Position numbers: made by a program. 64,000 bases of DNA from Vulcanimicrobiota bacterium (GTDB taxonomy: Bacteria > Vulcanimicrobiota > Vulcanimicrobiia > Vulcanimicrobiales > Vulcanimicrobiaceae), in the NCBI GenBank assembly GCA_963723515.1, contig CAVRQT010000003.1, positions 256,001-320,000 of the forward strand, given 5' to 3'. Below, in pieces: positions 33,001 through 36,000 of the stretch; position 1 is the first letter of the stretch, and each line of letters opens with the position of its first letter.

Positions 33001-36000
33001 GAACGCTCTGTGAGGACATCGGCGCTGCTCTCGGCGTTCCCGCCCACATGGGCGCCCTGCTGCGCGAAGGATGCGGCCCATTCGTACTCTTCGAGAGCCG
33101 TACCGTTGCCGAAATTGCAGACGATCCCAAAGGCGCCTTGACCGCTCCCGAACACATCATTCCGTTTCCGACGGTGGTGCTTGATTTGCGCGGCTCAGCC
33201 GACTTTCGCGCCGGGCGTGCCGTTGCAATCCCGGCCGGCGCACACGGAAAGCACGTTTTCGTGCGCGATGAAACGCGAGTGCTCGTCGGTGTGGGCGAGA
33301 TGCACGGCGCCCTTTTGGCGCCGCAAAAAGTCTTCGTGTGAACATCCACTACCGCTTGGAGTGGCGTGACGAACATCCACTCGTCTTAGCGATTGGATTC
33401 TTTGACGGCCTGCATCGTGGACACGCTGCGATTCTCAACGAACTCCGCCGGCTCCGAAAACCAGGGTATCGAACCGGCATCTTAACGTTTTCAAATCATC
33501 CGGCGACGCATTTGCGAACGGCGCCTCCGCCGTTGATTAACACCGTCGAGGAACGGCTCGGTCTGCTTGCCGATGCGGGCATCGAAGAATGTTTCTTCGT
33601 GCCCTTTGACGAGCGTATCGCGGCGCTCTCGCCAAACGATTTTGTCGATGGGGTGCTGATCGCTGCGCTTTCCGTCAGCGCTGTTGTCGTGGGGGAGAAC
33701 TTTCGCTTCGGCAAAGGCCGTAGCGGCGACGTCGCGTTTGCGCGAAGTGCGTTGGAGCGATGCAACGTCCGCTTTACCGCCGTCGCCAACCAGATCGACG
33801 GCGGCCAGAGAATTTCGAGCACGCGAATTCGTGAACTGATTGCAGAAGGGGAGATTGGGAAGGCGGATGCGTTGCTCGGACACCCATTTACGTTGCGAGG
33901 CCGCGTGATGTTAGGGGCGGGTCGCGGACGATCGTTGGGGTTTCCAACCGCAAATCTGAGCGTCAGACCGGGAAAGATTTTGCCGGTTGACGGCGTCTAT
34001 TCAGCCGTCGCTCGCCACGACGGGCGCGATTTCGCGGCGCTCGTATCGATCGGGACGAATCCGACGTTCGATGGAACGACGCGGAGCGTCGAAGCATGGC
34101 TGCGTGATTTTCGCCGTTCGATCTACGGAGAGGAGCTAGCGGTGCGAGACTTGCGCTTCGTGCGGGCTCAGCAGCGGTTTGCGAGCCCTGAGGAATTGCG
34201 CGAACAGATGGAGCAGGATGTCGTGGCTGTCGCCTACCCATCGTATGGGTAGAAACTTCGTGCCGTTCTCGCGCGTTGTAAGGAAGCATATGAAACGTCT
34301 CCTCCCGATCGTTGCGCTCTTGGCTGCGCTACCCAGCGCGGCGTTTGCCGGCGCTTCGGTCGGCAAGCCGGCTCCCAACTTTTCCGCTCCGCTTGCCTCA
34401 GGGGGCAAATTGACGCTATCGAGCTTGCATGGGAAACCGGTCTATTTGAACTTCTTTGCGACCTGGTGCGCACCGTGCAATGCGGAAGCGCCCGACATCA
34501 ATGCGCTGCAAAAACAGTATGCGCGCCGCGGTTTCGTCACGATCGGCGTGGATGAGCGCGAGGATGCCGACAAGGCAAAGAGCTTCGTGCACAAATTTGC
34601 GCTGGTCTATAAGGCGATCGTTGATGAGAACGGCGACGTGTTAAATCCGTACGGCGCGATCGGCCTGCCGGTGCACGTGTTCATCGACCGCCGCGGCAAT
34701 GTCAAACTGATCCGCAACGGCGAGATGTCCAAAGCGGAGATGGACTCGGCAATCAAGTCCATTTTGTAGTTTCTAGTGTCACACTGAGCTTGTCGAAGTG
34801 TGACTTGGAGTAAAACGTGCGTGGACACAGCCCCTTTGTCACACTGCGCTTGTCGAAGTCCCTGTGTCACACTGAGCTTACCGAAGGTCGCGGTGTCACA
34901 CTGAGCTTGTCGAAGTGTGACTTAGAGAAAATCGGGCGAAGAGAAGGTCCCGATGTCACTGCGCTTGTCGAAGTCCCTGTGTCACACTGAGCTTGTCGAA
35001 GTGTGACTTCGGCACAATTCGCGAATCGTCGCGAAGTCGCCGTTGATCAGCGCCGTCTTCTTATCGTGGCTCCAACCTTTGAGCTTCTTTTCGCATTGGA
35101 TGGCGTCCAGCACTTCGTGAAAATCTTGCGACCATACCAGCCGCACGGGCCTGCGGCCAAAAGTGTAACAGGTTGTGAAGGTGCCGTATTCGTGCTCGCC
35201 TACGCGTTTCTCAAGCTCGCTCGTGATCCCGATGTAGTATGTGCCATCCGAGCACAGCAACATGTAGACGTAATAGATTTTCACATGGCGACATTACCGC
35301 TCGGTCACACTTCGACAAGCTCAGTGTGACACTGGGACCCTGCTCCGATGCCCCATTACCGCTCGGTCACACTTCGACAAGCTCAGTGTGACACTGGGAC
35401 CCTCCTCCGATGCCCCATTACCGCTCGGTCACACTTCGATGCTTCGACACTTCGGCATCGCTCAGTGCAGGCTATGCTCAGCACAGGCTCGCTCAGTGTG
35501 ACACAGGGACTTCCTGTAAGGCTCGATTACCGCTCGGCCACACTTCGACAAGCTCAGCGTGACACAATAGCTCAGTGTGACACGGGGCCCTTCGGTGGCG
35601 GGATTTCGAAAAAGCGGCCACCCTAGGCTGCTTCGACTTTGAGTTCGTCTCCCTCGAGTTCAATGCGGGCCGAGCCGCCCGCTCGAACCTCGCCTCGTAA
35701 TATCGCCGTCGAAAGCGGCGTGCTGACAAGCCGCGCAACCGTTCGACCCACATAACGAGCGCCAGGGCCGGCACTCATACTTTCACGCGCGAGATGTGCG
35801 CGAGCATTTTGATCGAGTTGCAGCGTTACTCCGCGGGCGCCGAGGCGCTGCGCGAGCGCGTCAACGTGGATTGCGACGATCTGCTCGATGTGCGCCGGCT
35901 GCAATTCGTTGAAGAGCACGACCTCGTCGATCCGGTTCAAAAACTCCGGTCGCAGATATTCCGGAACTTGATCGCTCTCGAGATTGGTCGTCAAAATGAT

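Follow-up and report, generated by a model that had tools for sequence, protein, structure and literature searches.

A small GIY-YIG nuclease gene boxed by inverted TGTC-tagged hairpins in a Vulcanimicrobiota genome: a probable, somewhat divergent example of the Ssn kind

The window, by which we mean the whole stretch of 64,000 nucleotides that was analysed (contig CAVRQT010000003.1, positions 256,001 to 320,000), comes from a Vulcanimicrobiota bacterium whose genome of 2.11 Mb is 88% complete. It contains a gene for a small nuclease of the GIY-YIG type, located in a chromosomal intergenic site with a redoxin gene on one side and a ClpB-like gene on the other. As the first-pass annotation had described, this gene is boxed by two inverted arrays of a short repeat, and the copies that had been placed at 34776, 34864, 34893 and 34979 (+) and at 35307, 35369 and 35540 (-) were recovered there. 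The features of the window are the following:

34982..35284, minus strand: GIY-YIG nuclease gene (Ssn-like), a 100-aa single-domain ORF (PF01541)
34776..35009, plus strand: 3'-side hairpin array, inverted with respect to the 5'-side array (sequence and pattern matches)
34776-34806, 34893-34923 and 34979-35009, plus strand: full hairpins of the 3'-side array (pattern matches)
34864-34889, plus strand: variant copy in the 3'-side array (pattern match)
near 34838 and 34955, plus strand: degenerate copies in the 3'-side array (sequence)
35292..35584, minus strand: 5'-side hairpin array, in the same sense as the nuclease gene
35307-35332, 35369-35394 and 35540-35565, minus strand: copies of the 5'-side array (pattern matches)
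35431-35498, minus strand: scrambled copy in the 5'-side array, with micro-repeats of 8 and 16 bp (sequence)
35570-35584, minus strand: partial copy in the 5'-side array (sequence)
22776..22856, plus strand: doublet of two inverted hairpins with no gene between them (REPIN-like), outer ends GTCCCAGTGTCA...TGACACAGGGAC
14865..14883, plus strand: solitary hairpin copy, variant GTCACCCCGAGCTTGTCGA (pattern match)
24369..24387, plus strand: solitary hairpin copy, GTCATGCTGAGCTTGTCGA (pattern match)

The nuclease matches the Pfam GIY-YIG domain over residues 4-75 (E 2.4e-14) and carries no second domain. Its orthologues measure 90-103 aa, and in an alignment of 12 of them residues Y7, Y17, G19, R27, H31 and E65 are invariant. 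The closest 5' hairpin ends some 20 nt ahead of the GTG start codon and, at the other end, the conserved part of the protein stops near residue 92 and the final nine codons are read from a hairpin copy. No NCBIfam family matched the protein, and a word-based protein search gave 15 matches without informative names. The gene had been reported as having a single match in its genome, which holds at the level of orthologues; the Pfam search additionally finds a second small GIY-YIG paralogue (contig C3, 112533-112808), which is YhbQ-like and has no adjoining repeats.

Both arrays are built from tandem units. On the 3' side the period is 117 bp, present 1.9 times with 85% matches, and the unit folds as DNA with -6.8 kcal/mol (z about -2.3); on the 5' side a period of 62 bp is present 2.4 times with 98% matches, and the unit folds with -6.6 kcal/mol (z -2.9). 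The doublet at 22776..22856 has outer ends identical to those of the nuclease cassette and, as a single DNA strand, reaches -30.5 kcal/mol (z -8.1), a value that none of 200 shuffles attained, while the solitary copy at 14865..14883 folds weakly by itself (z -0.14). Altogether, the window holds seven copies of the repeat at up to 3 mismatches (0.00 expected) and 12 copies of a looser hairpin pattern (0.13 expected).

The genome-wide abundance claimed for this repeat was largely reproduced. The 12-nt core GAGCTTGTCGAA was again counted 103 times, and the 26-mer with up to 4 mismatches 99 times, with no match for the reversed control; these copies fall, however, at 62 loci under a 300-nt rule, instead of the 64 given before. 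The looser pattern finds 134 copies, against one for the reversed control. Each hairpin consists of a TGTC tag, a covarying stem and a conserved GAGC-N3-4-TCGA loop. Among 119 copies, 114 have the tag TGTC and four have CGTC, and pairing within the inner stem amounts to 93.9% of cells, where 500 shuffles averaged 77.2% and never exceeded 80.7%; one stem position alone is G-C in 38 copies, C-G in 36 and A-T in 27. In the full form the stem has 8 bp; the folded loop measures 11 nt, which shrinks to 5 nt when G.A, A.G and G-C pairs are allowed to close it. The tails are more varied, with TGA in 28 of these copies, CCA in 21, CCG in 14 and CAA in 12.

The pairing of gene and hairpin, which is real and observed directly, is not restricted to this locus. 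All 13 orthologue loci of the family carry hairpins of the repeat family, 10 of them with short-loop hairpins within 400 nt of the gene and the other three with long-loop forms in their flanks; at two loci (L009 and L014) the flanking copies are oppositely oriented. Of 80 loci drawn from many phyla, 59 have a copy no more than 200 nt from the gene, and 31 combine a plus copy upstream with a minus copy downstream. Close to the gene, hairpins reach a density of 4.33 per kb, as opposed to 0.116 per kb at more than 500 nt from it, and the orientation is strongly skewed, with 58 plus and 17 minus copies upstream and 20 plus and 51 minus copies downstream. As had been proposed, relatives and other phyla show the same box of inverted copies, each time with the variant that is amplified in that genome: in G041, for instance, the gene is flanked by GTCATCCCGAGCGGAGTCGA, the dominant form among the 53 copies of that genome, and a TTG loop is used both in the genome of the window and in G045.

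The gene and the repeat also track each other in presence and abundance. The repeat family is held by all 12 family genomes with the orthologue and by three of 13 without it. The half-motif TGTCAYNNYGAGC occurs 80-685 times in 11 of the 12 orthologue-bearing genomes; the twelfth, G008, has only nine copies of it because its repeat head is CGTCA, yet the hairpin pattern finds 43 there. Where no orthologue was detected, G001, G013 and G012 have 52, 45 and 32 half-motif copies (completeness 77%, 96% and 72%, respectively), and the other 10 genomes have 10 or fewer. Each of the 16 genomes of two sister families has five or fewer. Some Bacteroidota with the gene hold few or no scattered copies (one in G042 and six in G044).

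These figures bear on the idea of a passenger gene, located by chance in a hot spot of repeats and without functional link to the hairpins. The same-genus genome G001 could be read that way, since between the same two genes it has 1.5 copies of the hairpin plus an unrelated ORF of 177 aa, with no nuclease gene. Nonetheless, the 37-fold enrichment of hairpins beside the gene in a fixed orientation, the match of repeat variants within each genome, the joint presence and absence of gene and repeat, and the lack of adjoining copies at the small paralogue of the same genome make this explanation exceedingly improbable.

The closest described counterpart is provided by the Ssn nucleases (Chenal et al. 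2025, Nat Commun, PMC11893778), single-domain GIY-YIG proteins of about 94 aa (CDD cd10448, GIY-YIG_unchar_3) whose genes are flanked by NTS/SRM hairpin repeats. The target of Ssn is single-stranded DNA, where the protein binds the hairpin of one strand and cuts, likewise on one strand, a few bases 5' of the hairpin tag, and it acts neither on double-stranded DNA nor on RNA; in Neisseria, it lowers the integration of transforming DNA that carries its sites (PMC11893778). Its authors explicitly likened the system to IS elements and to REP/RAYT (PMC11893778). Both systems share a stand-alone GIY-YIG protein of about 95 aa, a gene boxed by inverted hairpins, a repeat scattered tens to hundreds of times and mostly outside genes, and the co-occurrence of gene and repeat across phyla. 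Even the flanked shares are similar: among Ssn homologues, defined by tblastn with the N. meningitidis protein (E below 1e-10), 71% have any repeat and 42% have repeats on both sides (PMC11893778), against the 59 and 31 of 80 loci found here.

The proteins themselves point in the same direction. In NTS-rich genomes, the family profile finds GIY-YIG genes that are flanked by NTS, and the window protein shares 37% identity over 93 aa with one such NTS-boxed gene product, from L126 (pairwise BLASTP E 2e-12). In an alignment it has 34-38% identity to the NTS-flanked proteins vs 25% to a YhbQ-type protein, and no orthologue or NTS-flanked protein in it departs from the catalytic Y, Y, R, H and E. 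A tree was set aside as a test of family membership, its base being unresolved where the NTS-flanked and YhbQ-type sequences join, with long NTS-type, YhbQ-type and UvrC branches. Mapping the family onto the 'ssnA homolog' column of the Ssn study (PMC11893778) was likewise dropped, because four checked Bacteroidota genomes each hold 6-10 GIY-YIG matches.

The hairpins, on the other hand, differ, with a TGTC tag, an 8-bp stem and the GAGC-N3-4-TCGA loop here vs CGTCAT-TCCCGCG-loop in the NTS. The published SRM motif, HGTCWYN(0-2)YYVSBRHN(0-5)WNVSBRGN(0-2)RNCYNB, matches the NTS copies in L124-L126 that served as positive control, and matches none of the 134 copies in the genome of the window and none within 200 nt of the gene at the 80 loci; its nine matches in that genome compare with 20-27 in shuffles. 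The motif was defined on 29 genomes that include neither Bacteroidota nor Eremiobacterota (PMC11893778). Supplementary Data 4 of that paper has no row for 'Eremiobacter' or 'Vulcanimicrobi', and its supplements contain no contig names of the loci analysed here.

According to this evidence, the gene quite probably encodes an Ssn-type nuclease that recognises the repeat as its cognate hairpin; the repeat would then be both a TGTC-tagged REP and, taken broadly, an 'Ssn-related motif'. The central proposal of the first-pass annotation, a REP-like hairpin family partnered by a small GIY-YIG nuclease and not by a RAYT, is thus sustained. Its claim of an undescribed second class of REP-associated enzyme has to be given up: since Ssn nucleases with their hairpin repeats were published in 2025 (PMC11893778), the locus is a further, somewhat divergent example of the Ssn kind and not a new class. 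Besides that paper, our literature search found no earlier link of GIY-YIG proteins to such repeats and no follow-up work on Ssn. What the locus adds is a hairpin class missed by the SRM motif, an Eremiobacterota host, and REPIN-like doublets with cassette ends.

By extension from the characterised homologue, at 37% identity, the window protein would act on single-stranded DNA only. When the DNA of the locus becomes single-stranded, as in uptake, replication or repair, the hairpin would fold, and the nuclease would recognise tag and stem together with the loop closed by G.A/A.G, and nick upstream of them. The effect may be the restriction or trimming of single-stranded DNA that carries sites. 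Other copies possibly serve as templates for mending such breaks, and the hairpins and local arrays would in this way be homogenised and spread. Here as in print, we infer that the enzyme may be 'domesticated' and may spread the repeats.

A different role was proposed for REPs of this sort in the portion of Di Nocera et al. 2013 (PMC3733652) drawn on here, where they are suggested to function as RNA. Transferred to this locus, the hairpins would be terminators or mRNA stabilisers that the nuclease gene simply has in its untranslated regions, with no recognition by the enzyme. The position of the copies fits, as they favour gene 3' ends: with crude ORF calls, the preference for convergent genes noted before was seen again, 43 of 100 intergenic copies lying in convergent spaces, which make up 18% of the spaces and 20.5% of the intergenic bases. 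A further 34 of the 134 copies fell within crude ORFs, many of which are likely spurious. The orientation relative to the upstream gene is nonetheless weak (26 same, 15 opposite), the hairpins are followed by no T-run, and the single site given by a terminator scan lies within the gene (0.7 expected). In positions 33000-37000 of the window, the Rfam search at E up to 1 yielded one snoRNA match at chance level and nothing else. An orientation-specific pairing with one protein family across phyla needs a protein partner, and the characterised Ssn homologue does not bind RNA (PMC11893778), so that we regard a purely RNA-based role as very unlikely.

Closer to the Ssn-type reading is the one favoured in the first-pass annotation, which overlaps with it and does not exclude it. 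The cassette would be an autonomous selfish element with the nuclease as its engine, and the scattered hairpins its non-autonomous, REPIN/MITE-like offspring: the nuclease would cut at hairpins, and host repair or replication would copy the cassette or the gene-less doublets elsewhere. Several observations are in line with it. Without a gene, +- doublets outnumber -+ pairs 17 to 4; they carry the cassette's outer ends, GTCCC[AT]GTGTCAC, and eight of them are spaced 42-50 nt. The near identity of the 62-bp units beside the gene suggests recent local duplication, the place of the gene is not kept (no ORF is common to the flanks of the 13 family loci), the corresponding space of G001 has hairpins without the nuclease gene, and genomes in which no orthologue was detected have fewer copies. 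On the opposite side, to our knowledge no strand-transfer activity is known for the GIY-YIG domain. The domain only hydrolyses DNA, and strand transfer was not reported for Ssn (PMC11893778). Orthologues are mostly one per genome, contrary to the many identical copies of active IS, and the sequences of the phylum form one clade (27 rows, SH-aLRT 99), which fits long vertical descent better than frequent invasion. Neither a target-site duplication nor an exact-border pair of empty and filled sites was obtained. Taken together, we consider a selfish element possible, though rather doubtful.

Somewhat more tentative still is a reading that joins both, in which an unlisted Ssn-type branch would have its own hairpin class and the nuclease itself would drive the spread of REPIN-like doublets. 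Under this reading, the class would be defined by the TGTC tag, the covarying stem and a GAGC-N3-4-TCGA loop closed by G.A/A.G, with a tip free to grow an inner stem; it would occur widely, across Eremiobacterota, Bacteroidota, Nitrospirota and further groups, and would escape the published SRM motif; and it would spread when single-stranded hairpins are cut and host repair copies the doublets. If true, this would represent a nuclease-only route to repeat amplification and would supply the 'orphan' CGTC/TGTC REP superfamily with an engine.

Since a GIY-YIG partner of REP-like hairpins has been in print since 2025, little hangs on this locus alone. Nevertheless, because the SRM motif misses this class, two kinds of published figure are probably underestimates, namely the proportion of Ssn homologues 'without' repeats and the numbers of repeats given for Bacteroidota and for uncultured phyla. 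The class also offers new enzyme-site pairs for the tools for cutting single-stranded DNA proposed in PMC11893778, and doublets with cassette ends, together with an abundance that tracks the gene, make a clean system to test nuclease-driven repeat spread.

Other known systems resemble the locus in part. The CGTC/TGTC-tagged REPs, as far as described in the portion of Di Nocera, De Gregorio and Rocco 2013 (PMC3733652) used here, which names no partner enzyme for them, are likewise short palindromes that carry an unpaired tag, CGTC or TGTC, on one side and have stems of about 8 bp (8-9 bp in their description), occurring as dimers, in several phyla, and with no adjoining tyrosine transposase. 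They have A-T at the first two stem positions, a tail near CCA, which the window family shows in only part of its copies, and loops of 4-5 nt; the loop here is 11 nt as drawn, or 5 nt once G.A, A.G and G-C pairs close it.

The resemblance to REP/REPIN sequences with their RAYT, judged from the portions of Nunvar 2010 and Bertels and Rainey 2011 considered (PMC2817692; PMC3116915), includes a single-copy gene with the genome's own hairpin in inverted orientation on its two sides, doublets folding into long hairpins, and inheritance of the gene within the lineage. The enzyme differs, however, a hydrolytic GIY-YIG nuclease here vs an HUH/Y1 transposase there, as does the tag, TGTC vs GTAG. The reported lack of a Y1 transposase (PF01797) holds for this genome and for 14 of the 15 same-family relatives searched, but not for G015, which has one. 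The repeat is at background level in G015.

GIY-YIG homing endonucleases such as I-TevI and the Seg proteins share the catalytic domain and are also encoded by small, selfish-looking genes. These enzymes use a separate DNA-binding domain and cut the double-stranded DNA of the empty allele, and their genes are not known to lie between inverted hairpins. Contrary to these intron-borne or free-standing phage genes, the window gene encodes a single-domain protein in a chromosomal intergenic site.

Some side observations concern the wider genomic context. In G041, copies are plus from 0.28 to 1.25 Mb and minus from 1.29 to 2.21 Mb, whereas the position of dnaA is 1.718 Mb and the origin and terminus, as judged from sampled GC skew, fall at about 1.65-1.7 Mb and 0.5 Mb, respectively; the orientation domains therefore do not follow the replichores and, with solitary copies of the window's genome split 15 to 16 between strands, a replication-strand bias was rejected as a general rule. 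The gene context in G041 was discarded as useless, as stop-to-stop ORF calls put nearly all copies 'inside' ORFs. The competence genes ComEC and DprA are present; they matched also in 10-11 of 14 control genomes, and their presence therefore says little.

Regarding the fold, the family profile matches PDB 1zg2 (E 2.3e-19) and 1ywl (E 5.2e-16), and the nuclease shares with these bacterial Slx1-like/UPF0213 (YhbQ) proteins a minimal GIY-YIG domain with no extra domains. The words 'palindrom' and 'inverted repeat' are absent from the text of Dunin-Horkawicz 2006 (PMC1564403), a reference for such proteins. What sets the nuclease apart from the YhbQ-like paralogue of its own genome are the adjoining hairpins and a much lower sequence similarity (25% with a YhbQ-type row).

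The first-pass annotation had described a repeat family boxing a GIY-YIG nuclease gene, and this observation holds. The gene encodes a protein of 100 aa with a GIY-YIG domain at residues 4-75 (Pfam, E 2.4e-14) and no further Pfam domain. The features discussed here are the following:

22776-22856: gene-less hairpin doublet (fold as DNA -30.5 kcal/mol, z -8.1)
34179-34769, plus strand: redoxin gene, one neighbour of the nuclease gene
34776-35009: 3'-side hairpin array (full copies: three; variant: one; degenerate: two)
34982-35284, minus strand: GIY-YIG nuclease ORF, 100 aa
35292-35584: 5'-side hairpin array, three good copies, one scrambled and one partial
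35623-37587, minus strand: ClpB-like AAA+ gene, the other neighbour

Both arrays are tandem, with a 117-bp unit (x 1.9) on the 3' side and a 62-bp unit (x 2.4, 98% matches) on the 5' side. Relative to the nuclease gene, upstream copies lie in the same sense and downstream copies are inverted. A hairpin copy encodes the final 9 codons of the ORF, and the closest upstream hairpin ends about 20 nt ahead of the GTG start. One upstream copy (35431-35498) is scrambled by micro-tandem repeats of 8 bp (x3) and 16 bp (x2.7), consisting of pieces from the hairpin itself, and looks like the result of slippage or repeated faulty repair inside the hairpin.

In G001, a genome of the same genus, the corresponding space, again flanked by the redoxin and ClpB-like genes (locus L036, 2095-2740), contains 1.5 hairpin copies directly after the redoxin stop, together with an unrelated 177-aa ORF with a signal-peptide-like start. 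Since neither this ORF nor the nuclease gene is common to both genomes, the space represents a variable spot. The studied genome, G000, also encodes a second small GIY-YIG protein of the YhbQ/UPF0213 type outside the window (contig C3, 112533-112808; L002). It has 92 aa and a GRGSKY motif. This gene has no adjacent hairpin copies, so the repeat association in G000 is limited to one of its two small GIY-YIG genes.

The 26-mer family reported in the first pass was recovered as 99 copies at 62 loci (up to 4 mismatches; reversed control 0), its 12-nt core being present 103 times in the genome. When searched as a hairpin (GTCA-N3-4-GAGC-N3-4-YCGA), the family reaches 134 copies, against 1 in the reversed control. 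The tag is TGTC in 114 of 119 copies, and the loop GAGC-N3-TCGA is conserved, with G.A, A.G and G-C pairs that could close the loop ends further. The 8-bp stem varies in a way that preserves its structure: the inner four pairs are variable and compensating, one position being G-C in 38, C-G in 36 and A-T in 27 of the 119 copies. Inner-stem pairing is found in 93.9% of cells, whereas 500 shuffles average 77.2% and never exceed 80.7%. A single unit folds as DNA at -6.8 kcal/mol (z about -2.3). Rfam gave no relevant match for the locus, NCBIfam no family match for the protein, and a look-up of sequencing runs listed none. A second subfamily consists mostly of singletons, whose stem is shorter and whose tails include CCA (21/119).

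Of 100 copies that are intergenic by crude ORF calls, 43 are located in convergent spaces, which make up 20.5% of intergenic bases; another 34 of the 134 copies fall inside crude ORFs, which are partly spurious. Adjacent copies form 17 +- pairs and 4 -+ pairs, eight of the former with a spacing of 42-50 nt, and solitary copies show no strand bias in G000 (15 vs 16).

The central idea of the first-pass annotation, a REP-like system paired with a GIY-YIG nuclease instead of a RAYT/Y1 transposase, is partly supported: its substance stands, but it has lost its novelty, Chenal et al. having provided the direct precedent in 2025 (PMC11893778). These authors described Ssn, a single-domain GIY-YIG family of about 94 aa (CDD cd10448), whose genes are flanked by hairpin repeats, called NTS in Neisseria and, more generally, SRM. 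At least one SRM lies near 71% of Ssn homologues, with SRMs on both sides in 42%, and a homologue is present in 81% of the genomes exceeding 200 SRMs. Purified Ssn binds the folded hairpin on one strand of single-stranded DNA and cuts upstream, 5' of the tag, with no action on dsDNA or RNA, and in Neisseria it modulates natural transformation. Their Discussion presents NTS-ssnA-NTS as insertion-sequence-like, draws a parallel to IS200/IS605 transposases with REP/BIME, and considers domestication as well as expansion of the repeats. Earlier, Di Nocera et al. (2013) had defined a superfamily of CGTC-tagged REPs, including the Neisseria dRS3 repeat, with a tag that is often TGTC, stems of 8-9 bp, tails near CCA and, according to these authors, no dedicated transposase (PMC3733652). 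The window system probably belongs to the published Ssn/SRM kind. By analogy, whenever the DNA of the locus is single-stranded, the window nuclease would act in this way on the TGTCA-stem-GAGC..TCGA hairpin. ComEC and DprA, both common genes, are present in G000.

For comparison with NTS-type proteins, 301 genomes of one order were searched with the published NTS pattern and the five richest (48-212 copies) were taken, each having one GIY-YIG gene by the family profile. NTS copies lie beside three of these five genes (L124-L126), L126 being boxed canonically with one copy on each side. The window protein shares 34-38% identity with these NTS-flanked proteins, compared to 25% with a YhbQ-type protein (BLASTP against L126: 37% over 93 aa, E 2e-12). 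Y7, Y17, G19, R27, H31 and E65 are invariant in all the groups aligned.

What the window system adds is a hairpin class outside the published SRM search motif. This motif matched none of the 134 hairpin copies of G000; its 9 matches in that genome are fewer than the 20-27 found in shuffles. At the 80 loci of the scan described below, the motif hits nothing up to 200 nt from the gene. As a control, it found the NTS copies of L124-L126. The 29 genomes that defined the motif include no Bacteroidota and no Eremiobacterota (PMC11893778), and the host phylum, under the two names searched, has no row in Supplementary Data 4 of that paper. In the same table, an ssnA/cd10448 homologue is listed for three of four Bacteroidota species checked, with little or no SRM enrichment (observed vs expected: 20 vs 20.9, 7 vs 2.8 and 2 vs 2.7); these four genomes have 6-10 GIY-YIG matches each, and the gene counted in the paper may be another.

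Of 24 same-family relatives, 11 gave orthologues, twelve in all and about 50% identical; one of the loci, L005, and its counts come from a genome flagged as unpublished (G022). The 13 family loci have no flanking ORF in common. Copies matching the short-loop pattern lie within 400 nt of the gene at 10 of them, usually with a + copy 38-79 nt upstream and a - copy at the stop or just past it. L008 has one clean hairpin pair with a perfect 32-nt inverted repeat, and the flanking copies of L009 and L014 are in reverse orientation. The remaining three loci (L009, L011, L015) have long-loop forms, with an inner stem in place of the tip.

Such forms flank the orthologues at L009, L011, L014, L015 and L033 (genomes G014, G024, G004 and G010). 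In place of the 3-4-nt tip, GAGC and TCGA enclose GTAG, an inner G+C-rich stem-loop and a short run ending in AG, so the conserved parts lie at the base of the hairpin, with a tip that can lengthen freely. The short-loop pattern misses these forms wholly, and three genomes look repeat-free by it. G010 has two orthologues (L015 and L033), one with an in-frame TAG, each boxed by its own variant (CTG and long-loop forms vs GTAG forms), both variants being scattered genome-wide.

The form at the gene is also the form in the rest of the genome. G000 and G045 have a TTG loop in both places, and the complete 2.5-Mb chromosome of G041 has on both flanks of the gene GTCATCCCGAGCGGAGTCGA, the dominant form among its 53 copies. 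Gene and repeats co-occur in the family. Counted by the loop-blind half-motif TGTCAYNNYGAGC (reversed controls 0-4), 11 of the 12 orthologue-bearing genomes have 80-685 copies; the other, G008, has 9 because its head is CGTCA, and 43 by another pattern. Among the 13 family genomes with no orthologue detected, G001 (77% complete) has 52, G013 (96%) 45 and G012 (72%) 32, the other ten having at most 10, and in two sister families none of the 16 genomes exceeds 5. These counts are given without a test statistic because the relatives are non-independent. Of the 15 family relatives searched, 14 gave no Y1 transposase (PF01797), and neither did G000. In G041, the genome of L038, copies are + in 31 of 33 cases from 0.28 to 1.25 Mb and - in 11 of 15 from 1.29 to 2.21 Mb. 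Replichores were rejected as the cause of these domains, which mismatch those given by dnaA (1.718 Mb) and the GC skew (sign change near 0.5 and 1.65 Mb; loci L129-L168 sampled).

A one-genome-per-species scan gave 586 relatives. The best 80 comprise Eremiobacterota/Vulcanimicrobiota (the window's lineage by record titles), many Bacteroidota, Nitrospirota, Nitrospinota, Ignavibacteriota, Patescibacteria, Peregrinibacteria, one Synechococcus and two Pseudomonadota. At 59 of these 80 loci a copy lies no more than 200 nt from the gene, and 31 combine + upstream with - downstream. Hairpin density is 4.33 per kb close to the gene and 0.116 per kb at distances above 500 nt, with 58 + and 17 - copies upstream and 20 + and 51 - downstream. 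Loops vary from lineage to lineage (TTG, CTG, GGAG, GCAG, GTAG, CCCG), whereas GTCA, GAGC and TCGA are constant. An orthologue with 50% identity is encoded on plasmid NZ_CP155752.1 of Sphingomonas parapaucimobilis, where its neighbours are nrdR and a gene for an RNA methyltransferase. It is boxed by hairpins (L122, 560-660 and 975-1010) that keep the GAGC-GAAG-TCGA loop with a further head variant, CGTTCA or CGTTCG instead of TGTCA.

The nuclease may itself spread the repeats, with observations on either side. A transposase-like role has against it the purely hydrolytic chemistry of the GIY-YIG domain, a gene that is mostly single-copy, and a gene clade that follows the phylum. In a 96-row tree (77 rows from the 80 loci, three with a stop in the match being left out, plus 12 relatives, three NTS-type, three YhbQ-type and one UvrC), all rows labelled as Eremiobacterota-lineage fall in one clade of 27 (SH-aLRT 99), together with two unlabelled rows and one titled Acidoferrum. 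This clade fits a long residence of the gene in the phylum, despite its changing genomic place; family membership is not decidable by this tree because its base is unresolved. In favour of spread by the nuclease, the gene-adjacent units are near-identical arrays, the site of the gene is not kept, as in the G001 space, copies are fewer where the orthologue was not found, and the outer ends GTCCC[AT]GTGTCAC are common to the 42-50 nt doublets and the nuclease cassette.
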